This document shows positions 8,023 through 56,061 of a stretch of DNA of 64,000 nt, in pieces. Origin of the DNA: a virus. The stretch spans positions 1 through 64,000 of IMG/VR virus record IMGVR_UViG_3300045971_000385, one strand, 5' to 3'. How positions within the stretch are numbered: the stretch's first letter is position 1; each line of letters starts with the position of its first letter. The translations under genes and the position numbers were made by a program. The notes beneath the pieces are model-generated. The model was given only the letters and a program-made list of their open reading frames with translations. It did not search any database and was not told where the DNA came from.

Positions 8023-8030
8023 AATAAATA
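8023..8030 (+). promoter_or_regulatory. late-type promoter variant AATAAATA for the cyclitol operon
   Basis: 1 mismatch to TATAAATA; same variant precedes structural gene 31794 and genes 26709 and 56072. Confidence 0.55.
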
Positions 8031-8058
8031 TTAGTAATATTATTTCAAAGTAACTATT

Positions 8059-8787
8059 ATGATTCTTATAATTTGTATGGCTGGCTTAAACACTAGATTC
8101 CATGATGTTGGAGTTGACTGCCCAAAATATTTGTTACCATGGGGTAACGAATCTATTATAACTGAAATTCTTGAACAATTAACAAAGGATTATAATTTTA
8201 AAGAAATTATGCTCCTAGCTAATAAACGAGACAGTTACTTCAAACATAAACTTCGATTAGCAACAGATAAATTTGGTGTGAATATCTACTATATTGGTGA
8301 TACACACGGTCAAGCTGAGACTGCAGCAATTGCAGCAAAAATGACAGAATTGGATTGCCCGATATTATTTCATAATGCAGACACTATCATCTCTGATAGA
8401 AGTATGAAGGGTATACAAGAATTTCTAATTAGAAATGACGCTTACATTGATACATTCTATGCTGATAATCCTGCATATTGCTATGTAAATGTTGATCATG
8501 AAAAGATAATATCAATAGATGAAAAGAAAACTATTACTGGAATAGCAAGTTCGGGTTTATATGGTTTTAAGTCGGCTAAAGAATATCTTAAAGCATATGA
8601 TCAGACTGTTAAATTTGCTTCTTCTGAAACATATATTTCAGATGTGTTACAAACAATACTTAAAAATGGCGGGTCAATTGCTATTAATGAAAGAATTCAC
8701 AGTCAATCATTTTTTAAAAATAGGGCAGCCACTAAAGTAATAGGTAGTCCTAAAGAATACTGGGAAGCAATAAATGAAATCAACTAA
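8059..8787 (+). CDS. sugar/cyclitol-phosphate nucleotidyltransferase (NTP_transferase, GT-A fold)
   Basis: IICMAGLNTRF...PKYLL, THGQAET, HNADT, EKK, ASSGLYGF, ETYISD. Confidence 0.8.
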   Translation: MILIICMAGLNTRFHDVGVDCPKYLLPWGNESIITEILEQLTKDYNFKEIMLLANKRDSYFKHKLRLATDKFGVNIYYIGDTHGQAETAAIAAKMTELDCPILFHNADTIISDRSMKGIQEFLIRNDAYIDTFYADNPAYCYVNVDHEKIISIDEKKTITGIASSGLYGFKSAKEYLKAYDQTVKFASSETYISDVLQTILKNGGSIAINERIHSQSFFKNRAATKVIGSPKEYWEAINEIN

Positions 8788-9760
8788 ACTAAAAGGTGGA
8801 TCACTCAGTGCAACATGGCTGTGTGAGTCTCGTAATTTAAAATTTGTTAGGAAATCCGTAAAATTAAATGAGAATAGAGAATATGGATTTATGAGATGGT
8901 ATTCGCAATTAAAAAAGATGCAACGATTATACACTGCACACCCAAAATTGCTTCCTAAAATATTAAAAGTTGCATATCAAGATGATACTGCGTATTTCGA
9001 TATGGAATACTTAGAAGGATTTACAGATGTTAAGAGTCTCTTGAGAGACGATTCACTTTCACCAACTCAGCTTCATCAAATGCATGATGCATTATGGAGA
9101 GCATTTGACACAATACATGCACGCGAAATGGTTCCACTACCATCAAGTATGAGACTGTATTATAAGGAAGAAGTAAAACAGAAACTTGATGACGCAATGC
9201 TCAATAAGGAATTTGCTGAGTTTGCAAACATGCAGTCATTTTATTATATGGGTCAAGAAGTTTTTAATATCAGCAATTATTTAGAACTACTAAATGGATT
9301 TTTAAATTTATCATTAATAGCAACTGAAGAAACGATTCACGGTAATCCCACATTAGAAAATGTTATGTATTCGCCATACGAAAATAGAGTGGTGTTTATC
9401 GATCTTTATGAAGAAAGTATTATTGATTCTAAGTTATTAGATTATGCACAAGTACTCCAATGTTCAAGCAGCAGATATGGAATTATTAATGACGGTGATG
9501 TTTTTATAGATGGAGATAATCAAGATCATTTATATTTAGACCACAATTCTAAAATTTCCGATTCATTGTTAATATTTAATACTTATTTTGTTGGTGAATT
9601 ACACAGACGAAATGTTGATATGAAACTTGTTCGCGCTTTAGAAGCTACGCAATTTATACGAATGTTGCCTTTTAAAATTCTAGCTGGTGATATTGATAAA
9701 GCAAAATTCTTTTATGTTCATGCATGCAAATTATTAGGAGACATTTTTGATGTTGAATGA
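8774..9760 (+). CDS. APH/choline-kinase-fold phosphotransferase (atypical HGN catalytic loop)
   Basis: GGSLS loop, VRK, PKIL, DMEYLEG, IHGNPTLENVMY, VVFID, DYAQVLQ. Confidence 0.7.
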   Translation: MKSTKLKGGSLSATWLCESRNLKFVRKSVKLNENREYGFMRWYSQLKKMQRLYTAHPKLLPKILKVAYQDDTAYFDMEYLEGFTDVKSLLRDDSLSPTQLHQMHDALWRAFDTIHAREMVPLPSSMRLYYKEEVKQKLDDAMLNKEFAEFANMQSFYYMGQEVFNISNYLELLNGFLNLSLIATEETIHGNPTLENVMYSPYENRVVFIDLYEESIIDSKLLDYAQVLQCSSSRYGIINDGDVFIDGDNQDHLYLDHNSKISDSLLIFNTYFVGELHRRNVDMKLVRALEATQFIRMLPFKILAGDIDKAKFFYVHACKLLGDIFDVE

Positions 9761-10889
9761 AATAAACAATTTTAAGAAGACATGGAATGTCAAAGCAGAA
9801 TTGCCTATTGAATTTAATGTTCAATATTCCAGCAATATTTTTAATACCAATAACCATGACTTGATAAGCTATGGGGATTCCGCACGCCGCATTGTTGTCA
9901 TAGATAAAAATGTGTATGACTTATATGGCAATCAAATGGAGACATACTTCTCAACATTGAAAGTTGAACTACTTCTTTATGTTGTAGATGTATCTGAGGA
10001 AACAAAGAACTGGGAAAATACAGATAACATACTTAAATTTTTCGAGAAGAGCGGAATTTTAAGAAGGGCTGAACCAGTAATAGCAATTGGTGGTGGCGTA
10101 TTATTGGATCTTGTTGGTTTTTGCGCTAGCATTTATCGACGAGGAATTCCATACATAAAAATTCCAACAACATTATTATCTATTGTTGATGCATCAGTCG
10201 GCGTAAAGGTCGGTGCTAATCATTTGGGCAGGCGTAATAGAATTGGTGCATACTATCCGCCAATAGTTTCTTTATTAGATAAAAAGTTTATCAATACTCA
10301 AAACACTAGAGAGATTGTTAATGGTATTGCTGAAATTTTTAAACTTGCTCTTATTAAAGATGCTGAATTGTTTTCATTGTTGGAAGAAAATTATGAACAG
10401 CTAATTCAAGAGAAGTTTCAATATGGTGCTGTGCCAGTTAGAGTTATTAATCTTGCTATTAATGGAATGATTGAAGAGCTTGCTCCTAATTTATGGGAGA
10501 AGAAGTTAGATAGATGTGTCGACTTCGGACATTCATTCAGTCCAGTAATTGAAATGAAAAATGTAACAGAATTATGTCATGGAGAAGCTGTAGTATTAGA
10601 TTGTTTACTGAGCTCGTGTATAGCATATTCAAAGCAATTCATAACCATTAATACACTACAGCGAATTTTTGATACTGCTAAGAATCTACAGCTTCAAACA
10701 TATCATGAAGATTTTACTAACTTTGATCTGCTAAAGTCAGCTTTATCTGATACCATGAAACATAGAAATAATAATCAATATCTTCCATTGCCTATTGGTA
10801 TAGGCAATTATGTAATCGCTAATGATGTTACAGATAAACAAATTTTAGAAGGCATACATTACTACAAAGGAATGAATAATGTCCAGTAA
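9750..10889 (+). CDS. sedoheptulose 7-phosphate cyclase, 2-epi-5-epi-valiolone synthase (EEVS) type
   Basis: DHQS-superfamily GGGVLLD, YRRGIP, PTTLL..VDASVG; EEVS-type MIEELAPNLWE and RCVDFGH; HGEAV; KHR. ATG at 9750 after AGGAG. Confidence 0.85.
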   Translation: MLNEINNFKKTWNVKAELPIEFNVQYSSNIFNTNNHDLISYGDSARRIVVIDKNVYDLYGNQMETYFSTLKVELLLYVVDVSEETKNWENTDNILKFFEKSGILRRAEPVIAIGGGVLLDLVGFCASIYRRGIPYIKIPTTLLSIVDASVGVKVGANHLGRRNRIGAYYPPIVSLLDKKFINTQNTREIVNGIAEIFKLALIKDAELFSLLEENYEQLIQEKFQYGAVPVRVINLAINGMIEELAPNLWEKKLDRCVDFGHSFSPVIEMKNVTELCHGEAVVLDCLLSSCIAYSKQFITINTLQRIFDTAKNLQLQTYHEDFTNFDLLKSALSDTMKHRNNNQYLPLPIGIGNYVIANDVTDKQILEGIHYYKGMNNVQ

Positions 10890-11556
10890 ATTAGCAGTAG
10901 TAACTGGTGCAAGCCGCGGGGTTGGATATGCTGTAGCAGAAAGTCTATTAAAGCAAGGCTGGATTGTTATAGGCTTATCTAGAAGCCCATGCCATCTTGA
11001 TATAGAATATCCTAAGTTTGTTCCAATTCAATGCAACATAACAGAAAAGACAGATGTGAAGCGTGCATTTATGAAACTAGAAAATGCTAAAATAGATCTT
11101 CTAGTAAATTGTGCATCAATTTTTAATATGCAACCATTTGGGGTATCTGCAGATACGCACAGTATCATTAATACAAACGTAATTGGAACTATTGATGTGA
11201 CTGGTGAAGCTCTATCATTAATGAATACTAATAGCAGAATAATCTTCATCAATTCTGTTGCGGGTTTAGAAGAGCTAGAAAATCAAGCTTTGTATTGCGC
11301 ATCTAAGTGGGCAATAACAGGTTTTGCAGGTGTTCTGGGTAAAGAACTCAGATCTAAAAAAATTAAAGTAACAAGCATTCATCCAGGTGGAATTAATACT
11401 TCTTTATGGAATGAAGGAAATCCATATCCAGTGGGAGATGTTACTAAAGCACTTCAAACTTCGGATATAGTGGATGCAATAAATTATATCCTGTCATGTC
11501 CTGACTATGTTGAAGTTAAAACTCTTAAATTATTTCCCGATATTGAGTGGCATTAA
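10879..11556 (+). CDS. short-chain dehydrogenase/reductase (classical SDR)
   Basis: TGASRGVG, NS, YCASK, HPGGINT. Confidence 0.9.
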   Translation: MSSKLAVVTGASRGVGYAVAESLLKQGWIVIGLSRSPCHLDIEYPKFVPIQCNITEKTDVKRAFMKLENAKIDLLVNCASIFNMQPFGVSADTHSIINTNVIGTIDVTGEALSLMNTNSRIIFINSVAGLEELENQALYCASKWAITGFAGVLGKELRSKKIKVTSIHPGGINTSLWNEGNPYPVGDVTKALQTSDIVDAINYILSCPDYVEVKTLKLFPDIEWH

Positions 11557-11559
11557 TAG

Positions 11560-11588
11560 TTTACTTCTAATGCCATACATTATATAAT
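11560..11588 (+). promoter_or_regulatory. early-type promoter, probably giving a leaderless mRNA
   Basis: TTTACT(11560-65)-17 bp-TATAAT(11583-88); ATG at 11594. Confidence 0.65.
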
Positions 11589-12151: not shown

Positions 12152-12550
12152 ATCCAAATTACTAAAGAATGTTTGCGTTTTAGAATGCAAGTTATCTGGG
12201 AGATCAGTTAGCTTGTAATTTTTAACTGCACTAATTTCAGATGACGGTAATACTTTATCAGATCCAGATATTTTAGCACTAAAATAAGTTGCTGTTCCAA
12301 TCTCAGCTATCTGCTTTAAAGAAGAAGGATCAATTTTATATCCCGTTTCTTCTTCTAATTCTCTAACTGCTGCATCTTTAGCAGACTCACCAATATCAAC
12401 ATGCCCACCGAAAAAATTCCATTGATTTGGATTATTTGATGATGGTGATCTCTTACCTAGAATAATCTTATTTCCATTATGGAGAATAACCCATGCAGTA
12501 TTCTTAGTTCTATTTGGTGTAGCTTTCTCAAAGAGTTCTTGTAATTTCAT
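12137..12550 (-). CDS. Nudix hydrolase with MKLQELFE N-terminus
   Basis: Nudix box GHVDIGESAKDAAVRELEEETG. Confidence 0.9.
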   Translation of the reverse strand: MKLQELFEKATPNRTKNTAWVILHNGNKIILGKRSPSSNNPNQWNFFGGHVDIGESAKDAAVRELEEETGYKIDPSSLKQIAEIGTATYFSAKISGSDKVLPSSEISAVKNYKLTDLPDNLHSKTQTFFSNLDSILS

Positions 12551-12984
12551 TTTGTGTTAAATATCCTATATTTTGATGGCAGATGTCCAGAAGGAACATT
12601 TCCCCAGAGCCAAAGTGATTTTAATTTTGCTGTTGGAACTGGATTTCCTTTACCATCCATTTTGTAAAGTTCACCATCATTCTTTAATACTTTAGAGACG
12701 TGGGCTATCTGTCTGTACATCCAATTTACTTCTTCAGTTGACCATTCGCCCAGAGGTTTGGCTCTCATTCTTAAAATATTTCTAAGAGCTCCTTTATGTG
12801 GTTTTGAACCGATCTTCTTCTTAACATCCTTCTTTGATAATCCAGTGCTCTTGCCTTCACCTTGATCTAAAAATGAATGCACTGTTGTGCTCGACATATT
12901 AATGAGCTTCTTCCATCTATTATAATCAGTGCGCAACTGTAATGGATCTTTTTTAGCTTCAGTTAAAAGTTCGTATACTTTCAT
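12547..12984 (-). CDS. DUF3140-like protein with MKVYELLTE N-terminus
   Basis: INMS...FL...G...ILR...W...M...H...SLWLWGNVP resembles the recalled DUF3140 pattern (VNM...SLxNWGHDP). Confidence 0.55.
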   Translation of the reverse strand: MKVYELLTEAKKDPLQLRTDYNRWKKLINMSSTTVHSFLDQGEGKSTGLSKKDVKKKIGSKPHKGALRNILRMRAKPLGEWSTEEVNWMYRQIAHVSKVLKNDGELYKMDGKGNPVPTAKLKSLWLWGNVPSGHLPSKYRIFNTK

Positions 12985-13721
12985 TTTATTTCTATCCCAA
13001 GTAATTCTAAAACTTCTATCATAAATTCATGATCTTTATCTTCCGAGTGAGCCCAAGGACGGACATATTTTAATCCAATATAACCAGAACCCGTTATAAG
13101 AATATCTTCATATCTCAAGTCAATAACTTGTGCAAGATTATCAGCATCATTAAATCTTTTTGGTTCAAGGCGTTTTAAAGCTCCAGCGGTAATAGATATT
13201 TTTTCATCCATATCATCAGTTTTATCTATTACTTTTTTAATTTTATCAAGATAATTATAAACATAATCATCTTTTACATTTTCAAATATAGTAGCATCCC
13301 AACCATCTTTTACGAATATAATATATGAGTTACCCCAGTCACGAGCAGTAGATTCACTAGTTGTGCAGAAAATAGAATTGCCTCTTTTGGCTTTTAATTC
13401 TAACGTATCCATAGCAGCATCAATTATTTTCTGAAAATCTTGATTAAGAAAGACTGGTTTTCTATCCGGTCTAATATCTGCTGTTATTAAAAGTTGTCCA
13501 TATCCTTTTATTTTTTCAGACTCCTTTACCCCGCGATAAATAAATTCTCCAGTTTCTTGGTATGCTTCTACAAATTTAGAACAATGACTTTCAATTAAAT
13601 CAGCTGCATGCTGAGCAGATTGAACTGCCTCGGCATTAAGCGATTTTTTCGGTTCAGTCAATGACCTAGCTTTAAATTTATCAACAGTTTTAAATTTATC
13701 TAGAATTTCGAATACTTTCAT
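12981..13721 (-). CDS. hypothetical protein with MKVFEILD N-terminus; possible ADP-ribosyltransferase-like fold
   Basis: FIYRG ... NSIFCTTS...A..WG..YIIF. Confidence 0.6.
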   Translation of the reverse strand: MKVFEILDKFKTVDKFKARSLTEPKKSLNAEAVQSAQHAADLIESHCSKFVEAYQETGEFIYRGVKESEKIKGYGQLLITADIRPDRKPVFLNQDFQKIIDAAMDTLELKAKRGNSIFCTTSESTARDWGNSYIIFVKDGWDATIFENVKDDYVYNYLDKIKKVIDKTDDMDEKISITAGALKRLEPKRFNDADNLAQVIDLRYEDILITGSGYIGLKYVRPWAHSEDKDHEFMIEVLELLGIEIK

Positions 13722-13738
13722 TATATCTCGCTCGATAA

Positions 13739-14122
13739 TTATTTAACAAATTTCTTAAATGAATCTGGTAGTCTATTATTTTCATTCTTAAATGGCAATT
13801 CTATTTCCAGCATATCATCTCTAGTAAATTTTATTTTACTTGGGTCTACAATATCCGATAGAATAGGGAGCTTTTTGACTTCCTGTCTTATTACTGTTTT
13901 TACTTTCTCTTTTAGATTAGATGACATTGGATCTGTAGTACCATAAAACCATAATAGCGGATGCAATGAAAGTTTTGAATAATCAAAATCGGTTCTAAAC
14001 CAATCTGGTTCAAGTTTGACTAGTCTATCAAGAACATTCTGTCCTAATTCGATTATTGCTTGCGAAATTTGCTTTTCGTTTGCTGCTTCATTAGCACTTT
14101 CGATTAATTCGTAGATTTTCAT
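13739..14122 (-). CDS. hypothetical protein with MKIYELIE N-terminus
   Basis: AGGA RBS on minus strand; late promoter upstream. Confidence 0.75.
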   Translation of the reverse strand: MKIYELIESANEAANEKQISQAIIELGQNVLDRLVKLEPDWFRTDFDYSKLSLHPLLWFYGTTDPMSSNLKEKVKTVIRQEVKKLPILSDIVDPSKIKFTRDDMLEIELPFKNENNRLPDSFKKFVK

Positions 14123-14168
14123 TATCTTCCTAATAATAGTTATATAAGTATTAACTTAATTGATTAAA

Positions 14169-14176
14169 TATTTATA
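14169..14176 (-). promoter_or_regulatory. T4-type late promoter TATAAATA
   Basis: TATTTATA on +, upstream of the four-gene minus-strand operon. Confidence 0.7.
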
Positions 14177-14196
14177 GGATTGTTACACTTTAACTG

Positions 14197-14244
14197 TGTA
14201 CTTGTCCTGACAAGTATGATATAATAACTTATAAATTGATTAAA
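14197..14244 (+). promoter_or_regulatory. early promoter, repeated family, with palindromic spacer
   Basis: TGTACT(14197-202)-17 bp-TATAAT(14220-25); TACTTGTC-CT-GACAAGTA at 14199-14216; TGTTACA at 14181. Confidence 0.85.
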
Positions 14245-14257
14245 CGAGGTAATTAAA

Positions 14258-14335
14258 ATGCATTCTGCTTTATTTTTAATTTTCTGGTCTGCTTGGATGT
14301 TACTTGCAATATTTGCTTTTGTAAAATTATCATGA
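14258..14335 (+). CDS. 25-aa hydrophobic peptide MHSALFLIFWSAWMLLAIFAFVKLS
   Basis: GAGG RBS; ATGA-coupled to next ORF. Confidence 0.6.
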   Translation: MHSALFLIFWSAWMLLAIFAFVKLS

Positions 14336-14583
14336 AAACACTTGATGTCATGTCAGATAAAATGCAGGAATATCCTTATGTTGTGTATTGGATATCGGTT
14401 TTTGATGGTTCAGTTACAGATAGAGGTCACACAACTTCAGCATTGAAATCCGATTTTTCTGCATTTGCTACTTATCAAGAAGCAGATAAGTTTAAAATAA
14501 AAATGGAAGAATTGAAGGAAATTAAAGCAACGTACAGAAGTAGAGTTGTTTTTCAAGTCTCTCAAATAGAAAGTATAAAATGA
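14332..14583 (+). CDS. hypothetical protein
   Basis: ATG at 14332 overlapping the upstream TGA, preferred over TTG 14293. Confidence 0.65.
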   Translation: MKTLDVMSDKMQEYPYVVYWISVFDGSVTDRGHTTSALKSDFSAFATYQEADKFKIKMEELKEIKATYRSRVVFQVSQIESIK

Positions 14584-15077
14584 TTAAAACTCCGTATCTC
14601 ATCCAGCGCGGCACCATTCGTACTCCAATGGATTTAAATTCTCGGTTATCTCAAGCTGTTAATTTTGATTACATGGGTTCAGCTGAATTTGAATGGGGCG
14701 CTTTGCCTAAATCATTCCGTGAAATTGAAAAGAATGCAGATAATTTTATCTGCAGATATGTTACGGATATCAACGATCAAGGTGGAAATGTTCTTAAGGT
14801 TTGGTCTTATTTTAGTGACATCGAATTTGCTAAATATGAAGTCTATTTAAAAACGTTGCGAAATCCATCAAGCGTTAAATCTGAAGAAAGAATTCATACT
14901 AAAGAATATACTGGTTTTGAATCTGGTGCAGCACAATTTAGAAATGAAAGAACTAATTTTTGGTGGGATATTGAAAATCAAATTATGTTTGGCTTTGATC
15001 AAGATTTTATGCCAAAAGTTGCACACTTTGTAGCTAACAGCTTAGACTATATGAATGAGCAGAAAGCAAATCAATAA
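14580..15077 (+). CDS. hypothetical phage protein (DYMGSAEFEWG motif)
   Basis: ATGA-coupled ORF. Confidence 0.75.
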   Translation: MIKTPYLIQRGTIRTPMDLNSRLSQAVNFDYMGSAEFEWGALPKSFREIEKNADNFICRYVTDINDQGGNVLKVWSYFSDIEFAKYEVYLKTLRNPSSVKSEERIHTKEYTGFESGAAQFRNERTNFWWDIENQIMFGFDQDFMPKVAHFVANSLDYMNEQKANQ

Positions 15078-15295
15078 TGGAACTTCTCCAAGAGACTAGT
15101 GAATGGAGTACTTATACTCCTAATCACATTTATATTTTTGATGGCAGTACTACAAAAATTGCCGGCTATATTAAACTTGGAACTTTAACAGCAGTTCGGT
15201 TTTCTAAGCCAATGGTTTTTAATAAGCGCTACAGAACATTTTGCAAAATCAAGCCAAAAGGTTTTGATTTATCAGCATTCAAAACGAAAGAATAA
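15077..15295 (+). CDS. hypothetical protein
   Basis: TAATG-coupled ORF. Confidence 0.7.
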   Translation: MELLQETSEWSTYTPNHIYIFDGSTTKIAGYIKLGTLTAVRFSKPMVFNKRYRTFCKIKPKGFDLSAFKTKE

Positions 15296-16243: not shown

Positions 16244-16771
16244 ATGGAAACAATTAAAGTTATTGAATATGTAAAATCTCCAAAAGTATCTACTTACGGT
16301 TATGTATTGCCTGGGATTGAAAGTGTCACACGGACTTATGATGTCTATTATTATGATGACATAAATGCTCTTGAGTGTGCGCTGAAAGCTATACCTGAGA
16401 TTCAAAAATCATTTGACACTCTATCCCGCGAATACAAAATGCTCCTTGAATATGTTACGATCAGTTATGCTGATTGGACAGAGAAATACAACAGTATTCC
16501 TGCTTGGCGCCGGTGGATTGCAGTAAAAGCCCCATTAGTTGAGGATTATGAACCTCTAAAAGAAGCTAAATTCAAAATGACATTGATTGGTACTTTGTTA
16601 ACTGAAGCTAGTGATTTAAAATATCGTGTTGATAATATTCAGATTTATACTAAACCCGATTCAAAGCCAGCCCCGACTGAAAAATTTAAATTTGAAGATC
16701 ATGCAGATTTAGTAGATCGTCTTAATAAATTCAGACATCTTGGTGTAGATTTCTTCTTTACTGGTATGTGA
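16244..16771 (+). CDS. hypothetical protein
   Basis: AAGGA RBS. Confidence 0.75.
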   Translation: METIKVIEYVKSPKVSTYGYVLPGIESVTRTYDVYYYDDINALECALKAIPEIQKSFDTLSREYKMLLEYVTISYADWTEKYNSIPAWRRWIAVKAPLVEDYEPLKEAKFKMTLIGTLLTEASDLKYRVDNIQIYTKPDSKPAPTEKFKFEDHADLVDRLNKFRHLGVDFFFTGM

Positions 16772-16772
16772 G

Positions 16773-16801
16773 TTTACATCAGGTCGTAAGTATGTTATAA
16801 T
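16773..16801 (+). promoter_or_regulatory. early-type promoter for topoisomerase
   Basis: GTTTACA; TTTACA(16773-78)-17 bp-TATAAT(16796-801), TCAGG in spacer. Confidence 0.8.
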
Positions 16802-16833
16802 TATCATACAACATCAATACAATAGGCAAACTA

Positions 16834-18741
16834 ATGGTAAAGCAAAAAACAATTGAAGAAAAATTCAAAAAATTAAACGAGGTGGAGCATGTATTGCTCC
16901 GCCCAGGTCGTTATATTGGTTCTATTACTCCACATACCGAAGTAGCTCATGTCTATGATCAAGTAGCTAAGAAGATGGTAAAGGAAGAAGTAACTTATAA
17001 CCCAGGTTTCTTGAAACTCTTCGACGAAGTTATTTCTAATTCAATCGATCATTCAAAACGACCAGAAGGAAAAGCTTTAGATATTATTCGCATTGATTTT
17101 GATCAAGCGAAGGGCGAAATTTCTATCTACGATAATGGTGGTATTCCTGTTTTAAAACACAAGGAATATAATCAGTGGATTCCTGAAATGATTTTTGAAC
17201 TTCGCGCCGGTTCAAACTTTGATGACGATGACCAAGCAATGCTTACAGGTCAAAATGGTGAGGGTGCAGCTCTTACCAACATTTTCTCTAACAAGTTTGT
17301 AGTTGAAACTTGTGATGGCAAAAATAAATTCAAAATGGTATTTGAGAATAATTCTCAGAACCGTCATGAAGCAAAAGTTACTCCTGCTGAAGGTGCAAAA
17401 GGTTTTACTCGTATTACTTATTCTCCAGATTTCGAAAAGCTTGGATGCGAATTTACAGATGATAATCTGAAAATGCTGCTAAAGCGAGTAGTTGATGTGG
17501 CTGGTTTAAATACAAACCTAAAAGTATATTGGGATGGTGAACGTATTCCTACTCGTTCTTTTAAGGACTATGTTGAGCTGTACACTGGTGCTGATGGTGA
17601 TTATGCGTATGATGAAACAGAAAATTGGAAAGTTGCTGTTTGCGCGTCAGAAGATGGATTCCAACATGTCTCATTTGTGAATGGTACTAACACTAAAGAA
17701 GGTGGTACACATATTCTTTATGCTGGTATGCAGATATGGGAACGCATTCGCGAATACATTAAAAAGAAAAACAAGATTGATATTAAGCCATCTGAATTGC
17801 GCCAGCATATGATGCTGTTTATTGATTGTTCGATGGTCAATCCACGTTACTCTTCTCAAACAAAAGAAAATCTTATTACTGAAGTTAAGGATTATAAAAC
17901 ATCCTATGAAGTTACTGATAAGATGATTAACAAGATTGTAAAATCTTCAATCATTCAATCTATTCTCGATTGGGCACAAGCAAAAGCTCTTCAAGAAGAA
18001 ATGAAAGAATTGCGCAAGATGAATAAGGATGCAGCTAAAACTGATCCTAAGCGTGTTGATAAATTCTCTGATGCTATTGAAAAGAAAGAACGGTCTAAGT
18101 GCGAATTGTATTTGGCTGAGGGTGATTCAGCTAGAAAATCTATTCAAGAAGTTCGCGGTAAGAATCCATATATTGGATCTTATGCACTTCGTGGCAAGCT
18201 ATTAAATGTTACTGATTGCAAAACAGAAGATATTCTGGGCAACAATGAAATCGCAAACTTGTTAACAATTATCGGTTTAAAAATCGGTGAGAAAGTTAAG
18301 AGTGTAGATGAACTGCGATTTGGTAAAATTGTTATGATGACAGATCAGGATTTGGATGGACATCACATCTCATCTTTGCTGTTTAATTTCTTTGCTAAAT
18401 TCTGGCCAGAGCTGTTTGATCTTGGCGTCATCTATAAGTTAACAACTCCTCTGGTTATTGCTAAAACAAAAACTGAAGAGTTTGAATTTACCGATGATAT
18501 TGAATTTGAAACTTGGGCTAAGAAAGCTCCCAAGTTTACTTTTGAGCGTTTTAAAGGTCTTGGAACATTTACTTCTAGTGAGTTCGGAAAAATTATCAGT
18601 AAGCGCGAATTGTATCTCACAAAGATTGATAAACTTGAATCAAAAGATTTTGCTGCAATCAATTTAGCTTTCTCAGGTTCAGAAGCAGATGCTCGAAAAG
18701 AATGGTTGAATGGTGCTTCGTATTTCCACGAGTACGATTAA
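16834..18741 (+). CDS. gp39: DNA topoisomerase II large subunit (GHKL ATPase + TOPRIM; T4 gp39+gp60-like)
   Basis: EHVLLRPGRYIGS, EVISNSID, DNGG, GQNGEGA, EGDSA, LRGK, DQDLDG, RFKGLG. Confidence 0.95.
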   Translation: MVKQKTIEEKFKKLNEVEHVLLRPGRYIGSITPHTEVAHVYDQVAKKMVKEEVTYNPGFLKLFDEVISNSIDHSKRPEGKALDIIRIDFDQAKGEISIYDNGGIPVLKHKEYNQWIPEMIFELRAGSNFDDDDQAMLTGQNGEGAALTNIFSNKFVVETCDGKNKFKMVFENNSQNRHEAKVTPAEGAKGFTRITYSPDFEKLGCEFTDDNLKMLLKRVVDVAGLNTNLKVYWDGERIPTRSFKDYVELYTGADGDYAYDETENWKVAVCASEDGFQHVSFVNGTNTKEGGTHILYAGMQIWERIREYIKKKNKIDIKPSELRQHMMLFIDCSMVNPRYSSQTKENLITEVKDYKTSYEVTDKMINKIVKSSIIQSILDWAQAKALQEEMKELRKMNKDAAKTDPKRVDKFSDAIEKKERSKCELYLAEGDSARKSIQEVRGKNPYIGSYALRGKLLNVTDCKTEDILGNNEIANLLTIIGLKIGEKVKSVDELRFGKIVMMTDQDLDGHHISSLLFNFFAKFWPELFDLGVIYKLTTPLVIAKTKTEEFEFTDDIEFETWAKKAPKFTFERFKGLGTFTSSEFGKIISKRELYLTKIDKLESKDFAAINLAFSGSEADARKEWLNGASYFHEYD

Positions 18742-23506: not shown

Positions 23507-24454
23507 ATGGAACAGACTTACCTAGAATATCAAGAGCAAGCATACCTTGACTTGCTTAAGAAAGTATTAGAAACTGGCGAAGAAAAAATTGATCGTACTG
23601 GAGTAGGTACGAAATCATTATTTGGAACTTCACTTAAATTTGATCTAAGTGAAAAGTTTCCAATGTTAACAACAAAAAGAATTTTTGTTAAACCTGTATT
23701 TGGTGAATTGCTTTGGTTCCTGGAAGGATCCGGAGATGAAAGACGCCTAGCAGAAATTACTTATGGCACTCGAGACAAAGAACGAACTACTATTTGGACA
23801 GCCAATGCTGAGGCTTCATATTGGAAACCAAAAGCTGCATATGAAGGTGATCTGGGGCGAGTATACGGTGTGCAGTGGCGTAAATGGAGAACAACAAAGC
23901 TCTCTAGTATTGGTGATATTGTTCATCATATTGATGGTGGATATACTGTATTTGATACTAAGGCGACTGTTACTGAACTGGATCAGATTGCCCAAGTAAT
24001 TAATTCACTTAAAAATAATCCAGCAGATCGTCGTATGATGATTACAGCTTTTAATCCTGGTGAGATTGATCAAATGGCATTACCTCCATGCCACATGTTC
24101 GCACAATTCCATGTTAATCAGCAAACTAAAAAACTTAATTGTCAAATGTATATGAGGTCAGTTGATTTATTTTTAGGATTACCTTTTAATATTGCTTCTT
24201 ATGCTCTCTTAACAAAAATGCTGGCACATGTAACTGGATTAACTGCAGGTGAATTGACTATCGCTATGGGTGATACGCACATTTATCTAAATCATTTAGA
24301 GCAAGTTAAAGAACAGTTGTCTAGAACACCATATGAAATGCCTACAGTTACATTAGATGAATCAATTACCAATATTGATGATTTTAAAATGGAACATATC
24401 AAGCTTAATGATTATCAATATCATCCAGCAATTAAAGCCCCGATGGCTGTATAA
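23507..24454 (+). CDS. thyA: thymidylate synthase ThyA
   Basis: DRTGVGT, ELLWFL, YGVQWR, ALPPCH, RSVDLFLGLPFNIASY, GDTHIY, IKAPMAV C-terminus. Confidence 0.97.
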   Translation: MEQTYLEYQEQAYLDLLKKVLETGEEKIDRTGVGTKSLFGTSLKFDLSEKFPMLTTKRIFVKPVFGELLWFLEGSGDERRLAEITYGTRDKERTTIWTANAEASYWKPKAAYEGDLGRVYGVQWRKWRTTKLSSIGDIVHHIDGGYTVFDTKATVTELDQIAQVINSLKNNPADRRMMITAFNPGEIDQMALPPCHMFAQFHVNQQTKKLNCQMYMRSVDLFLGLPFNIASYALLTKMLAHVTGLTAGELTIAMGDTHIYLNHLEQVKEQLSRTPYEMPTVTLDESITNIDDFKMEHIKLNDYQYHPAIKAPMAV

Positions 24455-47713: not shown

Positions 47714-48097
47714 ATGTCAAAAACTAATCCTGACCTTCAGGCAGCAATTGATACGCGTCTAGAAGAAGCTATGAAAACCCAGACATACAGGTTAACTTTA
47801 GCTACACAAAAAGAAAATGCTAGATTGAAATTATCAAATGATTTAACATTTGCTGTAAATGGTGGATCTTTTATTGTATCAATGGAACTTATTTCTTTTA
47901 TCTCAATCTTAATAATGGCTGGGAAAAATGAAACTATTCTACTTGACATGCATCAAAACCCAATTCAAATTGACGATCTAAATGAGTTTGTTGAATCAAT
48001 TATGAATGTGTATTTTGAGAGCACCAATACATTCTTTCTAGAATTTAATAAGCTACAAAAATTAAGAACTCCCAAGGCAATATTAGGAGTAAAATAA
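47714..48097 (+). CDS. hypothetical protein
   Basis: AAGGA RBS; first gene of GT-like operon. Confidence 0.75.
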   Translation: MSKTNPDLQAAIDTRLEEAMKTQTYRLTLATQKENARLKLSNDLTFAVNGGSFIVSMELISFISILIMAGKNETILLDMHQNPIQIDDLNEFVESIMNVYFESTNTFFLEFNKLQKLRTPKAILGVK

Positions 48098-48984
48098 TGT
48101 CAAGAGGCATTGTAATTTTTGGCGTTAATAATGAGCGAGTTGATTATGTTCAACTTGCTATTATGGCCGCATCATTTGTTAAAAAGAATATGCCCGGAAC
48201 TGATGTGTGTTTAATATCAGATGAAAATTCGGTTGTTGTATCAGGTGGAAGAGATGAACTATTAAAAACATTTAGTCACATTCAAATAATTCCAGAGAAT
48301 ACAGTAGAGCAATTTGAAAACAAACGAGCATACAAAGACACTCAATACTACCACGTACTAGATCGATTCAGAAATGAAACTAGATCATTAGTATACAACC
48401 TATCTCCCTTTGAAGAAACATTATTAATTGATAGTGATTTTCTTATTATGAATAACAATCTTAGTAAGGTGTGGGGTAGTGTAGAAGAGGTTATGATCAA
48501 TCATCAAGCTATAGGATTAGCACATAATCAATTACATGGACAAGAGTTTAGATTGAATCCATTTGGTATAAAAATGTACTGGGCTACCTTAATTTATTTT
48601 CGTAAGGGTGAAAAAGCTCAGACTCTTTTTAACTTGGTAGATCATATTAAAGATAATTGGGATTTTTATAAGCTAACATATGATTTTCCGAATTTACTAT
48701 TTAGGAATGATTATGCATTTTCAATTGCCATTCATATCTTAAATGGATTTTTAGAGAATAGCAATTATGTTGTATCTCTTCCAGAACCAACTATTCTAAG
48801 CGCGTTAGATATAGATCAATTTTTTGACATTCAATCGCCAACTGAAATATGTTTATTTGCTAATGATATGAAAGAATCTTGGAAGTTCTCAGCAATTAAA
48901 ACTAAAGGTTTAAATGTTCATTGTATGAATAAGCTTTCTTTGATTAATCATATGGACAAAATAATGGGAATACTAAATGAGTAA
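48097..48984 (+). CDS. GT-A-fold glycosyltransferase-like protein
   Basis: RGIVIF...YVQLA, LSPFEETLLIDSD (DxD), RNDYAF. Confidence 0.65.
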   Translation: MSRGIVIFGVNNERVDYVQLAIMAASFVKKNMPGTDVCLISDENSVVVSGGRDELLKTFSHIQIIPENTVEQFENKRAYKDTQYYHVLDRFRNETRSLVYNLSPFEETLLIDSDFLIMNNNLSKVWGSVEEVMINHQAIGLAHNQLHGQEFRLNPFGIKMYWATLIYFRKGEKAQTLFNLVDHIKDNWDFYKLTYDFPNLLFRNDYAFSIAIHILNGFLENSNYVVSLPEPTILSALDIDQFFDIQSPTEICLFANDMKESWKFSAIKTKGLNVHCMNKLSLINHMDKIMGILNE

Positions 48985-49837
48985 AGGTTATTTTACTATA
49001 GCTCAGGGACAGACATATCAGCGCCTTGCATATGCTTTAGCTTTATCACTAAAAATATCTCAGCCTACTGGATATAATTCACTTGCTATTGGTGTAACGC
49101 CTAAAGAATTGCCATTTGTTAATCCTAAGTATCTAGAAGTCTTTGATGCAGTAGTTCCAATTCCATGGAAAGATAGTGCTATTAATAGCTCATGGAAATT
49201 AGAGAATGAATGGAAAGCCATTCACATGACTCCTTATGACGAGACAATTAAATTAGATGCTGACATGTTATTCCCAGCAGATGTTAGTCATTGGTGGAAA
49301 TACTTGGAACTTAGTGATGGCGTATTTGCTACACAAGCTCATACATATAGAGGTCATATAGCTGAGTCTGATTATTACAGAAAAACATTCACTGAAAACA
49401 ATTTGCCAAATGTATATTCGGCTATGTTTTATTTTAAAAAGAATGATGTCAATTTTGAATTTTTCGAAATAGCAGAACATATTTTTAATAACTGGGAAAG
49501 ATATTTTTATGATTTCTTGGCTACAGAAAATAGACCTAAGATAGTATCTACCGATGTAGTGTTCGCTATCGCAGCAAAAATTATGGACTATCAACAATAT
49601 AATAAAACGCCACAGCTTCACTGTCCATCTTTTGTTCATATGAAGACTAGATTGCAGGATTGGCCTGACGATCAATTTATGTCTGAGGATTGGACTAAAA
49701 TGATTCCTCATTATTTCGATAAGAGAGGTAATTTAAAAGTTGGAAATTATGCTCAGATATTACCATTTCATTATCACGTAAAAGATTTTATAACGGATAA
49801 AATTATAGAAAATATGGAAAAGAGGTTAGGCATATGA
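48977..49837 (+). CDS. GT-A-fold glycosyltransferase-like protein (paralog of previous)
   Basis: KGYFTIA...YQRLAYALALS, TPYDETIKLDAD (DxD), STDVVF, FVHMK, FHYH. Confidence 0.65.
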   Translation: MSKGYFTIAQGQTYQRLAYALALSLKISQPTGYNSLAIGVTPKELPFVNPKYLEVFDAVVPIPWKDSAINSSWKLENEWKAIHMTPYDETIKLDADMLFPADVSHWWKYLELSDGVFATQAHTYRGHIAESDYYRKTFTENNLPNVYSAMFYFKKNDVNFEFFEIAEHIFNNWERYFYDFLATENRPKIVSTDVVFAIAAKIMDYQQYNKTPQLHCPSFVHMKTRLQDWPDDQFMSEDWTKMIPHYFDKRGNLKVGNYAQILPFHYHVKDFITDKIIENMEKRLGI

Positions 49838-50487
49838 ACATAATGGATTTTATTAATCAGCTAGTAACTGGGTCGGCTCAGTCTGAGCCGCCTGTAGTAG
49901 TTAAGTCTACTAATAAATTTTATGCGCATATTGATACTCAACAGATTTCTATATGCGCAATCTCTCCATCAGAATCCGATGATAGACATATTAGAAATGT
50001 AGAAATTGATAGTGAAACTGCAATTAAATTTTTATCTGGTGAGGAAGCTTTATCTGGCTGGGAAGTTTTAATTGCTGGTGAGGAATATAAAATTAGTAAA
50101 AATGTTAAAACTGGTAGAGCGGTTTATAATAGAGTTGAAATTCAACCTATTACTGAAGTTACTTGGCTAGAAGAATCTAAAAAGAAATTAACATCCGAGG
50201 ACATCCTTATCAGCATAAGTCATAAGAATAAAACTGCTAGCATTCATTATGATGGTAGTAAAATCTCTAATTGGGCAAGACCTGCTAAATTATATTTTAC
50301 TGGAGAAGGGGATCCATCATACCTGAAATGTGCATTTACCTTAGATATAAATATCATCAATGACATTATGGTAGCTAATAAATTATCTAGATGGCCGAAT
50401 CCAATTATATTGCCGCTATCGGATACTACTGATATATCTGTCTACACAATTAAATCCAATCTTATTATAAATTTAAATCACATATGA
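49834..50487 (+). CDS. hypothetical protein
   Basis: ATGA-coupled. Confidence 0.7.
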   Translation: MNIMDFINQLVTGSAQSEPPVVVKSTNKFYAHIDTQQISICAISPSESDDRHIRNVEIDSETAIKFLSGEEALSGWEVLIAGEEYKISKNVKTGRAVYNRVEIQPITEVTWLEESKKKLTSEDILISISHKNKTASIHYDGSKISNWARPAKLYFTGEGDPSYLKCAFTLDINIINDIMVANKLSRWPNPIILPLSDTTDISVYTIKSNLIINLNHI

Positions 50488-51452
50488 AACATTCTATAAA
50501 TGAATTTGACATTTTCTATCTGTCATACGATGAACCGCAAAAAGAAGAATTTTGGGCTAAACTTGTTGATATTTTTCCATGGGCACAGCGTATTGACGGA
50601 GTAAAAGGTTTTGATGCTGCCCATAAAGCCTGCGCCGATGCATCAACAACAGATAGATTTATCACTGTTGACGGAGATAATTTGGTATATCCGAACTTCT
50701 TAGATATTGAAATTGATATCCCAGATAAATTAGCTGATGCTTCTTTAAGTTGGGGTGCTAAGAATATTGTTAATGGATTATGTTATGGTAATGGTGGATT
50801 AAAACTCTGGACTAAAGAGTTTGTTCTTAAAATGAGAACGCATGAAGCTGCAACTAAGGATGAAGAGAAGGTTGATTTCTGTTGGGATGATAAATATGTT
50901 CAACTCAATAATACATATTCAGATACTTATATCAATGGTTCTCCATTCCAAGCCTTTAGAGCTGGATTTAGAGAAGGTGTTAAGATGACTTTAGATCGCG
51001 GTGTTAAAGCAGGAGAAGGAACAATATCTAAACACATGCATTCTAAAAATTATAATCGTCTGCTAATTTGGGCATCAATAGGCCAAGATGTAGAGAATGG
51101 AATTTGGGCAATCTATGGAACACGATTAGGAATATATCAAGCTAACATCAATAAAGATTTTGACATCGCACAAATATCAGACTATGATTGGTTTAAAAAA
51201 TACTATCACGAAGAGATTGCTACTAAGTTCGTAAAAGATGGTGAGAAAAGATGTTGGAGAACTGGACAAGTTTGGAATGAGCACACATTAAAAGCTGCTT
51301 CTACTGCTCTACTTGAACCACTTAAGAAACAATTAGGAATGAATCTTGCGGATTTGGATGCAACTCAATCGCTATTCTTTAAAACCGTATATGAATCTCC
51401 GCGAAGAAATAACAATCCAGTAATGACGGAATCTGAAGCTGACAGACTTTAA
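50484..51452 (+). CDS. GT2-like glycosyltransferase
   Basis: FYLSYDEP, GVKG..AAH, ITVDGD, YGNGGLKL, AFRAGFREGVK; paralog of the N-domain of 62924-64000. Confidence 0.65.
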   Translation: MKHSINEFDIFYLSYDEPQKEEFWAKLVDIFPWAQRIDGVKGFDAAHKACADASTTDRFITVDGDNLVYPNFLDIEIDIPDKLADASLSWGAKNIVNGLCYGNGGLKLWTKEFVLKMRTHEAATKDEEKVDFCWDDKYVQLNNTYSDTYINGSPFQAFRAGFREGVKMTLDRGVKAGEGTISKHMHSKNYNRLLIWASIGQDVENGIWAIYGTRLGIYQANINKDFDIAQISDYDWFKKYYHEEIATKFVKDGEKRCWRTGQVWNEHTLKAASTALLEPLKKQLGMNLADLDATQSLFFKTVYESPRRNNNPVMTESEADRL

Positions 51453-53033: not shown

Positions 53034-53063
53034 AAAATAAAGGACCTTCGGGTCCTTTATTTT
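53034..53063. terminator. bidirectional terminator with C(UUCG)G loop
   Basis: AAAATAAAGGACC-TTCG-GGTCCTTTATTTT between convergent genes. Confidence 0.9.
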
Positions 53064-56036: not shown

Positions 56037-56061
56037 AATAAATAGTTATACCGTATTTATA
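56037..56061. promoter_or_regulatory. interlocked divergent late-type promoters
   Basis: AATAAATA 56037-44 (plus) and TATTTATA 56054-61 (minus TATAAATA). Confidence 0.6.

Follow-up and report, generated by a model that had tools for sequence, protein, structure and literature searches.

A four-gene cassette in an uncultured T4-like phage from a pond likely makes an NDP-C7-cyclitol donor for a glycan, starting from sedoheptulose-7-phosphate (S7P) and proceeding by cyclization, reduction, phosphorylation, and nucleotidylation. The phage, which carries topoisomerase II and Rnl1 genes, is represented by a contig estimated to cover 22% of its genome, and the first 64,000 nucleotides of this record (IMGVR_UViG_3300045971_000385) form the window analyzed here. 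What was observed of the cassette is its gene content, the class and fold of its enzymes, and its co-conservation. It consists of four co-directional plus-strand open reading frames at 8059 to 11556: a nucleotidyltransferase (NT; 8059 to 8787, 242 amino acids [aa]) proposed to act on a cyclitol phosphate; a small-molecule kinase of the APH/choline-kinase fold with an HGNPTLEN loop (KIN; 8774 to 9760, 328 aa), the proposed cyclitol kinase; a probable EEVS-family S7P cyclase (CYC; 9750 to 10889, 379 aa from the ATG, with a TTG one codon upstream at 9747); and a classical SDR (10879 to 11556, 225 aa), proposed to serve as a ketoreductase that uses NADPH on the C-1 ketone of the cyclitol. A preliminary description of this DNA had claimed four overlapping genes, and indeed the frames overlap by 14, 11, and 11 nucleotides, and about 80 independent viral loci keep the same genes in the same order. 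NT, KIN, CYC, and SDR are probably one translationally coupled unit that is expressed late.

Upstream of the unit, a T4-late-promoter-like octamer, AATAAATA, lies on the plus strand at 8023 to 8030, 29 nucleotides before the first ATG (8059). The T4 late promoter octamer, TATAAATA, stands shortly upstream of late genes; the cassette octamer begins with A in place of its T. Within the window, 13 of 19 (A/T)ATAAATA sites fall no more than 100 nucleotides upstream of a same-strand gene start, against a background of 7% of positions, whereas AATAAATA is not over-represented (8 found versus 14.7 expected). Judged from motif position and likeness to T4, the late-type promoter proposed earlier is plausible.

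The cyclase is a two-domain, DHQS-like protein (DHQ_synthase PF01761, 113 bits; DHQS_C PF24621, 73 bits). Its bit scores were 309 to ValA, an EEVS of solved structure (4p53), 208 to DDGS (5tpr), at most 127 to DHQS, and 80 to DOIS, and it stayed under the aroB equivalog cutoff (213 versus 305). A GGG loop together with a Glu and two His residues at the metal-ligand positions of DHQS is invariant across 44 cyclase homologues, and we presume by homology to DHQS that the Glu and both His are metal ligands. Both motifs on which the EEVS assignment was first based were found in the translation, MIEELAPNLWE at residues 241 to 251 (window positions 10467 to 10499) and RCVDFGH at residues 256 to 262 (10512 to 10532), numbered from the TTG. 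The Asp of RCVDFGH (..VDFGHSFSP) and the His of DTMKHR (DT.KHR) are common to the cyclase and ValA, whereas DDGS has Ala and Thr. We take these aligned positions to be the two published EEVS-versus-DDGS sites of Kean 2014. Two active-site positions that separate EEVS from DDGS are cited after that study in PMC4426668.

A quick maximum-likelihood tree was computed from 109 cyclase rows, with characterized EVS, EboD, and full-length DDGS sequences left out; EVS has been placed near DHQS (PMC5133447). DHQS formed the outgroup, split from the ingroup at 98% support, and a DDGS orthologue (L170, 422 bits to 5tpr) branched at the ingroup base. The cassette cyclases formed a clade of 43 rows with 99% support, nested within the EEVS radiation and neighboring a ValA-like actinomycete clade (L118, 446 bits to 4p53). 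An AroB/DHQS identity was rejected on the DHQS scores, the aroB cutoff, and the outgroup position: in the comparison suggested earlier, by scores and tree, the cyclase groups not with AroB but with ValA-type EEVS. The best score to ValA, the two ValA-like positions, and the tree placement all sustain the initial assignment to the EEVS type rather than to DHQS/AroB or DDGS, and the protein is most likely an EEVS-family S7P cyclase as far as its sequence tells. Because the branch leading to the cassette clade is long (0.63), the stereochemical outcome of the reaction may differ. A ROK kinase domain, absent from the cassette cyclase, is part of many other EEVS homologues, and such fusions imply that cyclitols themselves are phosphorylated.

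Searches of IMG/VR matched 123 contigs. Among 84 viral loci, NT was present in 75, KIN in 80, CYC in 84, and SDR in 82; the order NT-KIN-CYC-SDR was constant wherever flanks exist, and NT adjoined the kinase and cyclase genes in 75 of the 84. The order in cells is KIN-CYC-SDR-NT, as seen in Balneolaceae, Kofleriaceae, Haliangiales, Myxococcales, Fibrobacteria, Polynucleobacter, and Woesearchaeota. The four genes are therefore kept together in phages and in cells, the joint conservation that the preliminary description had proposed to check. Its label of a phage-encoded operon fits the roughly 80 viral loci, but the cassette is not phage specific, being carried by bacterial and archaeal genomes and metagenome-assembled genomes (MAGs) as well. 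A related cyclase was absent from 50,697 GenBank phage records, no PHROG exists for the cyclase or the kinase, and the cassette is undescribed in the phage isolate records, PHROG families, and open-access papers that we searched.

The kinase yielded only a weak Pkinase match in Pfam (E = 0.0025), with no Pfam family above threshold and no PHROG match. Its AF2 model (pLDDT 92) aligned to APH(4)-Ia with a VIA-align Z score of 19.1 (root mean square deviation of 3.2 Å over 262 residues) and to fructosamine-3-kinase, glucosamine kinase, MTR kinase, maltokinase, and LicA with Z scores of 17 to 18 (LicA, 17.4). The modeled structure is thus a bilobal APH/ChoK fold, and its matches are small-molecule hydroxyl kinases, anomeric sugar kinases among them; APH(4)-Ia itself phosphorylates an aminocyclitol ring. 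The ATP/Mg motif residues K27, N196, and D210 are invariant in the family. The catalytic loop, H189-G-N191-P-T-L-E-N196, departs from the HxDxxxxN signature of APH/choline-kinase-like kinases in that Asn191 stands in the place of the catalytic Asp; transfer of the phosphate could accordingly be weak, follow a different catalysis, or not take place. HGN occurs in about 90 of 94 kinase homologues, and HGD occurs in one archaeal MAG.

The best Foldseek matches of the kinase model are MTR kinase and NahK, with anomeric sugar kinases at the top of the list, and NT weakly matches MurU and HddC. These likenesses fit a reading in which the two enzymes activate an ordinary sugar by salvage, as AmgK/MurU and NahK do, while the cyclitol is an acceptor or a free product, such as a glycosylated cyclitol or an inhibitor of glycosidases or trehalase. 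Free C7 cyclitols, including streptol and kirkamide, are bioactive (PMC12904256). We nonetheless consider salvage improbable: the kinase gene lies beside 39 of the 43 cyclases of the 99%-supported clade and beside none of 61 other cyclases, kinase and cyclase form the most conserved gene pair and stand alone in two loci (L091 and L108), and the ROK fusions point to phosphorylated cyclitols.

NT matched NTP_transferase (PF00483) with 50.2 bits against a cutoff of 21.2 (E = 3.4e-13) and has an N-terminal loop of the G-x-x-x-R type (AGLNTRF, residues 8 to 14). Its best PDB match was 4evw, an NDP-sugar pyrophosphorylase (1e-11), followed by RmlA; phrog_3980 was also matched. Matches to the NCBIfam models GlmU-N, RmlA, HddC, and MurU were below threshold, and NT reached no equivalog cutoff, all scores being far below and only generic models being matched. 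On this basis, NT is a predicted sugar-phosphate nucleotidyltransferase of a short, RmlA/GlmU-N-like type. The SDR scored 129 bits to adh_short (E = 1.7e-37), and its PDB neighbors are generic ketoreductases. SDRs are recognized by a TGxxxGxG cofactor motif and an N-S-Y-K tetrad, here TGASRGVG at residues 9 to 16 and N100/S126/Y139/K143; Arg35 suggests, by a known motif rule, NADP(H) as the cofactor. In Prochlorococcus single-amplified genome (SAG) loci, an aldo-keto reductase takes the place of the SDR, which supports a reduction step in the pathway.

In the route that we propose, the cyclase, with NAD+ and Zn2+ or Co2+, would convert S7P from the host pentose phosphate pathway, with loss of its phosphate, into 2-epi-5-epi-valiolone or a close stereoisomer. 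The SDR would use NADPH to reduce the ketone at C-1, perhaps once beta-elimination has produced an enone, yielding a valiolol- or valienol-type alcohol, and the kinase would add a phosphate from ATP to this reduced cyclitol, in the simplest case on the pseudo-anomeric C-1 hydroxyl. NT would then join the cyclitol phosphate to an NTP, and GT-A-fold transferases (DUF7796 and others) may pass the resulting NDP-cyclitol to a glycan on virion proteins or the host envelope. We infer each chemical step, the nucleotide, the order of the SDR and kinase reactions, and the acceptor, and the same holds for the valiolol-type and NDP labels of the product. This pathway is favored because of the cyclase class, the co-conservation, the kinase fold, the glycan context, and the acarbose precedent. 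Counted against it are the lack of an Acb/Val-like epimerase or dehydratase in the cassette, Asn191 of the kinase, the generic matches of NT, the doubtful glycosyl transfer from a saturated donor, the distance between the cassette and the GT-like genes of the window, and the coverage of an estimated 22% of the genome by the contig.

A saturated carbasugar would be a poor glycosyl donor. An oxocarbenium-like transition state is out of reach for its NDP derivative, which makes ordinary glycosyl transfer chemically doubtful. Phosphotransfer would escape this problem, and the product could instead be a donor of the CDP-alcohol type, carrying its nucleotide via a C-7 or C-1 phosphate, from which a phospho-cyclitol would be transferred and linked by a phosphodiester rather than a pseudoglycosidic bond. 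Phosphocholine (LicA/LicC/LicD), ribitol phosphate, and CDP-inositol are parallels. The kinase/NT pairing resembles LicA/LicC, LicA is among the structural neighbors of the kinase (Z = 17.4; Foldseek), NT has weak matches to NTP_transf_3 and IspD-type cytidylyltransferases, and an unannotated 235-aa family, found directly after the SDR in most phage loci, could be the phospho-cyclitol transferase. Yet the best matches of NT are sugar-1-phosphate enzymes (PF00483, 4evw, and RmlA), the closest genomic associates of the cassette are GT-A-fold proteins, and the neighbors scanned showed no domain of the LicD, CDP-alcohol phosphatidyltransferase, or TagF-like type. A CDP-alcohol-type donor is therefore unlikely in our judgment.

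For the NDP-cyclitol route, candidate transferases are encoded elsewhere in the window, where none adjoins the cassette and the nearest GT-like genes are 37 to 45 kb away. An 801-aa minus-strand protein (53057 to 55462) has three tandem DUF7796/GT-A-like domains: the HMM of the DUF7796 family, which flanks the cassette in 70 related loci, matched residues 1 to 167, 274 to 452, and 543 to 595 (E = 2e-31). A model of domain 1 (pLDDT 84) had only GT-A enzymes among its top Foldseek matches (probability 1.0; BoGT6a, GnT-I, and glycogenin), with VIA Z scores of 12.2 to 13.1 to such enzymes. D105, R111, D113, and D149 are invariant in the family, and in a Balneolaceae MAG the gene just upstream of that for the kinase encodes a homologue. 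By these models, the DUF7796 domains are GT-A folds and candidate transferases for the activated cyclitol. Synteny alone singles out a plus-strand operon of four GT-like candidates (48097 to 51452; 295, 286, 217, and 322 aa) that has no Pfam match. Homologues of 48097 to 48984, 48977 to 49837, and 50484 to 51452 adjoin the cassette in one locus (L070), and those of 50484 to 51452 directly follow the SDR in three others (L082-L084); the Atlas cluster nearest to this protein is auto-named "Glycosyltransferase 2-like," a lead only. A paralogue, detected by hmmsearch with the profile of its family (family 34; E = 2e-50), starts at 62924 on the plus strand and runs past the window end at 64000 (62924 to 64285 on the contig, 453 aa). 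A 471-aa plus-strand radical SAM protein (56072 to 57487; PF04055 at 3e-6, below the cutoff), with AATAAATA at 56037, has homologues beside the cassette in L070 and L080/L081.

In related phage loci, the cassette lies among genes for the GT-A-like family, a methyltransferase, an NDP-sugar dehydratase/epimerase, and a DegT aminotransferase, and in a Polynucleobacter isolate it lies among ManC, GT2, Wzz-like, and GT9 genes. The cassette thus occurs at least once inside a bacterial surface-polysaccharide locus. These settings bear on two further readings. S7P is the substrate of GmhA and a precursor of lipopolysaccharide (LPS) heptose, and with the weak match of NT to HddC the cassette could be a metabolic weapon or sink that makes no glycan, draining S7P or producing a mimic of an NDP-sugar by which synthesis of the host envelope would be blocked. 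This is very improbable, as self-poisoning would be senseless in a bacterial polysaccharide locus, the phage copies are embedded among transferase-like genes, and the late-type promoter placement suits assembly-stage functions better than early takeover. T4 glycosylates its DNA with NDP-sugars, a precedent that in a T4-like phage (topoisomerase II and Rnl1) would allow an NDP-cyclitol to modify the DNA of the phage, creating a hypermodified base comparable to glucosyl-hmC. We give this hardly any credence: the copies in cells are part of a surface-glycan locus, and the PF00303 protein at 23507 to 24454 scores as thymidylate synthase, although it may be a dCMP hydroxymethylase.

A broader and more tentative proposal, which we hold to be somewhat less probable than its opposite, is that aquatic T4-like phages and scattered bacteria build glycans with a true carbasugar, activated from S7P to an NDP-C7-cyclitol by a minimal set of four enzymes and installed on virion proteins or the host envelope by GT-A-fold pseudoglycosyltransferases (DUF7796). 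If so, the carbasugar would be a new glycosidase-resistant building block for glycobiology and would involve a new transferase class, and the kinase with its atypical HGN would represent a cyclitol kinase of a new type.

The closest known logic is that of the GDP-valienol branch of acarbose and validamycin biosynthesis, in which an EEVS-family cyclase (AcbC/ValA) likewise acts on S7P and which has the cyclise-reduce-phosphorylate-nucleotidylate sequence in common with the proposed route (PMC9200736). There, the C-1 kinase AcbU acts together with AcbR to form GDP-valienol, the substrate of the pseudoglycosyltransferase AcbS (PMC9200736). The full enzyme set comprises the 7-kinase AcbM/ValC, AcbO, AcbL, AcbN, the 1-kinase AcbU, AcbJ, the nucleotidyltransferase AcbR/ValB, and AcbS/ValL, whereas the cassette has four genes only and no phosphatase, and a domain scan of its genes and neighbors found no ROK/adenosine-kinase-type kinase, 2-epimerase, Zn-ADH, or GT-B pseudoglycosyltransferase. 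It is found in a phage and in a surface-glycan locus rather than in a secondary-metabolite cluster. As stated in the preliminary description, kinase and NT are of subfamilies unlike those of Streptomyces, with an APH/ChoK fold and HGN instead of ROK and a short RmlA/GlmU-N-like NT, and actinomycete EEVS loci contain no homologue of either.

AmgK/MurU, NahK, and LicA/LicC resemble the cassette in using an APH-fold kinase and a short NTP_transferase for two-step formation of an activated donor; in the cassette, the two are tied to a cyclase and a reductase predicted to give a carbocyclic substrate, and the kinase has Asn for the catalytic Asp. The gadusol (EEVS and MT-Ox), MAA (DDGS, O-MT, and ATP-grasp), and ebo (EboD) systems use S7P cyclases of the same superfamily (PMC4426668, PMC5133447), but the cassette lacks their methyltransferase-oxidase, ATP-grasp, UbiA prenyltransferase, and TatD partners, and its cyclase differs from MAA-type DDGS in being ValA-like at both positions compared. 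Phage glycan islands, such as those for mycobacteriophage virion glycosylation and the LPS-modifying genes of cyanophages, are likewise part of large phage genomes and hold sugar-activation and transferase genes that are expressed late. We know of no such island that builds a carbocyclic sugar. Altogether, EEVS-based formation of an NDP-carbasugar is a known logic, from which the cassette differs in its four-gene set, its kinase and NT types, and its setting in phages and a surface-glycan locus.

Four overlapping genes on the plus strand make up the cassette: a nucleotidyltransferase gene (NT; 8059-8787) with a PF00483 family match, a kinase gene (KIN; 8774-9760) with a weak protein-kinase sequence match, a cyclase gene (CYC; 9750-10889) matching both DHQS domains, and a gene for a classical SDR reductase (10879-11556), recognized by its domain match. 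Consecutive ORFs overlap by 14, 11, and 11 nt, and the ORF coordinates and domain matches confirmed the arrangement put forward in the preliminary description. The parent IMG/VR viral contig is 76.7 kb long and rated ~22% complete, with the window being its first 64 kb; the G+C content of the window phage is ~34%, and the window DNA is present in pond metagenomes. The window encodes both T4-type topoisomerase II subunits and a T4 Rnl1-type RNA ligase, and its large proteins match phage structural-protein families; thus, the source is a large T4-like phage. The reading as a host island miscalled as a virus was rejected on the strength of the topoisomerase II and Rnl1 genes and of relatives whose cassette has UvsX, a gp41-like helicase, and a virion protein as neighbors.

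Against solved structures, the cyclase scored 309 bits to ValA (4p53), the synthase of 2-epi-5-epi-valiolone (EEVS) in validamycin biosynthesis, and 208 bits to Anabaena DDGS (5tpr), compared with 127 bits or less to DHQS structures and 80 bits to DOIS; its score also fell under the NCBI aroB cut-off. Both motifs that had been quoted as marking an EEVS were located in the protein. In alignments, the Asp of ..VDFGHSFSP and the His of DT.KHR, which we take to be the two EEVS/DDGS fingerprint sites, are common to the cyclase and ValA, whereas DDGS has Ala and Thr. A pair of fingerprint sites tells EEVS apart from DDGS (PMC4426668). A maximum-likelihood tree was built from 109 rows (the window, 22 dereplicated viral and 80 cellular loci, five DHQS sequences, and one DDGS fragment), with no characterized EVS, EboD, or full-length DDGS sequences among them. 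The ingroup split from DHQS at 98% support, a DDGS orthologue (422 bits to 5tpr) formed its base, and a Streptomyces clade (446 bits to ValA) lay inside it. The window cyclase fell in a clade (29 rows, 96%) made up of viral sequences and a few MAG/SAG contigs, itself nested in a 43-row clade (99%). Since characterized EVS enzymes lie near DHQS (PMC5133447), an EVS identity is unlikely. Thus, structure scores, shared residues, and tree position make membership in the EEVS family well supported at the sequence level, in keeping with the earlier claim of an EEVS-type enzyme rather than AroB. The reading of the gene as an AroB/shikimate auxiliary gene is contradicted by the scores, the aligned residues, and the tree.

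A profile scan of IMG/VR found a related cyclase on 123 contigs, and metagenomic proteins ~70% identical number in the hundreds. To survey the cassette, we ran tblastn on 80 fetched loci and three from the first scan, with denominators given out of 84 loci. NT, KIN, CYC, and SDR were found in 75/84, 80/84, 84/84, and 82/84 viral loci, respectively, with identities to the window proteins of ~45, ~50, ~65 to 70, and ~45%, and wherever flanks exist, the order NT-KIN-CYC-SDR is invariable. At least 584 cellular cyclase relatives occur in one species-representative genome set. Cellular genomes carry the same genes as KIN-CYC-SDR-NT (Balneolaceae, Kofleriaceae, Haliangiales, Myxococcales, Fibrobacteria, a Polynucleobacter isolate, and a Woesearchaeote) or as NT-KIN-CYC(-SDR) (an Actinomarina SAG, a Magnetovibrionaceae MAG, and two Prochlorococcus SAGs). 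Moreover, the kinase gene lies beside 39 of the 43 cyclases of the 99% clade versus 0 of 61 others. Actinomycete EEVS loci held no homologue of the cassette kinase or NT; in many other EEVS homologues, the cyclase is instead joined to a ROK kinase in one protein. The four genes are therefore a unit, and the proposed co-conservation was borne out by the constant viral order and by recurrence of the set in cellular genomes. In the two Prochlorococcus SAG loci (L094, 1338-6575; L095), NT-KIN-CYC is followed by an aldo-keto reductase gene at the SDR position, a nonorthologous replacement that argues for a ketoreduction step.

Several further features of these loci were observed. A sulfotransferase and a TPR protein are encoded near the Prochlorococcus cassettes, whose cyclases sit on a very long branch (2.1). 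Three "cellular" contigs, L085 (262.8 kb, from a "Gammaproteobacteria" MAG), L086, and L088 (192.8 kb, from an Actinomarina SAG), show phage gene order, and their cyclases nest within the viral clade; such contigs could stem from infected cells or from phage genomes that were binned with cellular DNA, and they may hint at hosts. In a divergent viral branch (L080, 7940-9058; L083, 1127-2365), NT and the kinase gene are separated by an insert of two small ORFs and a gene for a RuBisCO large-subunit-like protein (PF00016, 2e-32), which could add a sugar-phosphate isomerization or enolization step. Among metagenomic proteins P0246 to P0393, many EEVS-like cyclases are C-terminal fusions to ROK kinases (~720 to 760 aa), others have an AMP-binding enzyme or a cupin as the fusion partner, and a few proteins of 2,400 to 2,650 aa have two cyclase-like stretches. 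Hundreds of metagenomic copies of the cyclase are labeled "3-dehydroquinate synthase" by their sources.

No Pfam family scored above threshold for the cassette kinase, and PF01636 (APH) was found in a few of its homologues. An AlphaFold model built from 26 homologues reached a pLDDT of 92, and the top Foldseek ranks were methylthioribose (MTR) kinase, N-acetylhexosamine 1-kinase, APHs, and LicA. In VIA alignments, the model matched APH(4)-Ia with a Z score of 19.1 (rmsd, 3.2 Å; 262 residues) and fructosamine-3-kinase, glucosamine kinase, MTR kinase, maltokinase, and choline kinases with Z scores of 17 to 18. By its modeled fold, the protein is a predicted small-molecule hydroxyl kinase. The family profile searched against PDB sequences hit only the JAK2 pseudokinase domain, marginally (E 0.04), via a common IHGN motif. 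In the catalytic loop, HGNPTLEN, an Asn occupies the position of the family's catalytic Asp; HGN is present in about 90 of the 94 homologues from phages and cells, and HGD occurs in one archaeal MAG. Three residues show no variation, namely the beta-3 Lys, the Asn of the loop, and the Asp downstream of it, and binding of ATP and Mg therefore looks intact. Catalysis may proceed by a mechanism different from that of the Asp-bearing relatives, and the absent Asp adds uncertainty to the proposed phosphorylation step. The closest solved relatives of NT are an NDP-sugar pyrophosphorylase (4evw) and RmlA, and none of the NCBIfam equivalog cut-offs was approached. The SDR contains TGASRGVG, Arg35, and the N-S-Y-K tetrad and resembles generic NADPH ketoreductases.

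The surroundings of the cassette were then compared across loci. In the isolate Polynucleobacter sp. 80A-SIGWE (locus L114), its flanking genes encode ManC, a GT2, a Wzz-like protein, and a GT9, and the site is a surface-polysaccharide locus. In phages, the cassette commonly lies inside a longer codirectional gene run, bounded by UvsX, a gp41-like helicase, and a virion structural protein, that encodes a GT-A-like protein (weak PF03407, phrog_1579), sometimes an NDP-sugar dehydratase/epimerase, a methyltransferase, and a DUF7796 protein. Downstream of the cassette, an unannotated 235-aa protein is encoded, joined in some loci by a DegT aminotransferase and a 2OG oxygenase. In most related phages, the sugar island is followed by a gene for a 700- to 900-aa protein with cytidylyltransferase-like and zeta-toxin/P-loop kinase domains (e.g., 12522-15224 in locus L079 and 16253-18391 in locus L005). 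A single-domain DUF7796 gene flanks the cassette in ~70 related phage loci and lies immediately upstream of the kinase gene in a Balneolaceae MAG. In the window, an 801-aa protein with three tandem DUF7796 domains is encoded on the minus strand at 53057-55462, not adjacent to the cassette. Its domain 1 was modeled (pLDDT 84) with a GT-A fold; every top Foldseek match was a nucleotide-sugar transferase, and VIA gave Z scores of 12 to 13 against GnT-I, mannosylglycerate synthase, and BoGT6a. Furthermore, homologues of 48097-49837, 50484-51452, 62924-64285 (a paralogue of 50484-51452), and 56072-57487 (a radical SAM gene) adjoin the cassette in the related loci L070 and L080 to L084, and this synteny ties the cassette to the distant window gene group that the preliminary description had noted. 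Pfam and PHROG scans of 48097-51452, 53057-55462, 62924-64285, and the 235-aa post-SDR family returned nothing usable, and hhalign among the neighbor families found one relationship only, family 73 with family 74; most neighbor genes therefore carry no family name. Among these, the modeled structure backs a putative glycosyltransferase identity for DUF7796 alone.

A AATAAATA octamer lies 29 nt upstream of the first cassette ATG. By count, neither AATAAATA (8 versus 14.7 expected) nor TATAAATA (11 versus 11.2 expected) is overrepresented. By placement, 13 of 19 (A/T)ATAAATA sites (examples start at 8023, 14169, 26676, 28343, 31737, 43307, 44737, 56037, 56054, and 62576) have a gene start on the same strand no more than 100 nt downstream (16 to 95 nt, most of them 16 to 50 nt), versus a 7% background. 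The late-type promoter motif of the preliminary description is thus informative by position only; by analogy with T4, it is probably a late promoter element. A sigma-70-like TTTACT-17-TATAAT element at 11560-11588, directly after the SDR stop and ahead of a phosphoesterase gene (phrog_547) that is common in phages, marks the 3' end of the cassette unit. At this predicted element, transcription may pass from a late unit to an early one.

C7 cyclitols are the cores of antibiotics, enzyme inhibitors (acarbose and validamycin), plant-symbiont metabolites, and sunscreens; to our knowledge, they are not known as surface-glycan building blocks or from viruses. PHROG had no family match for the cyclase or kinase, and blastn of the four-gene block against GenBank phages gave no match. 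tblastn against GenBank phage records returned aroB only, in host-contaminated records and at 31% identity or less; a related cyclase occurred in 0 of 50,697 records, a set outside which close relatives of this genome may lie. Full-text literature searches turned up no paper in which valiolone or EEVS is tied to phages or viruses or to the biosynthesis of polysaccharides, and a 2026 cyclitol review mentions neither. The enzyme families and the NDP-carbasugar concept are already known; the new elements are the combination of genes, the viral and surface-glycan context in which it occurs, and the HGN kinase. The cassette is abundant in viruses (123 contigs) and also occurs in bacterial genomes and MAGs. 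If an NDP-carbasugar is made, phages and bacteria would display nonhydrolyzable sugar mimics on surfaces, with a bearing on receptor masking, depolymerase/glycosidase resistance, and phage-host recognition, and the compact enzymes could serve chemoenzymatic synthesis of activated carbasugars. Virome annotations of "3-dehydroquinate synthase" would then be misleading, and surveys would miscount such cyclases as shikimate-pathway auxiliary genes.

The simplest reading of the four predicted enzymes is a route to an NDP-cyclitol: the cyclase would convert sedoheptulose 7-phosphate (S7P) to a cyclitol ketone, the SDR would reduce the ketone to an alcohol, the kinase would form the cyclitol phosphate, and NT would activate it as the NDP-cyclitol. 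No transaldolase was found in 77 kb of phage sequence, so there is no sign that the phage encodes S7P supply. Known pseudoglycosyl donors are unsaturated (valienol), the unsaturation stabilizing the transition state, and a saturated valiolol-type donor would be sluggish. Either dehydration therefore occurs, beta-elimination from a 1-keto, 5-hydroxy system being facile, or the product serves as a phospho-alcohol donor instead of a pseudoglycosyl donor, the cyclitol being moved as a phospho-alcohol from a CDP-alcohol-type donor without a pseudoglycosidic bond. Sequence, fold, phylogeny, and synteny give the NDP-cyclitol reading what support such data can offer, each of its chemical steps being a prediction. 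At the experimentally established end of the acarbose route, AcbU phosphorylates C-1, AcbR yields GDP-valienol, and AcbS transfers GDP-valienol (PMC9200736). The cassette mirrors the same logic; however, its enzymes are unrelated to those of the acarbose route, and its steps are fewer.
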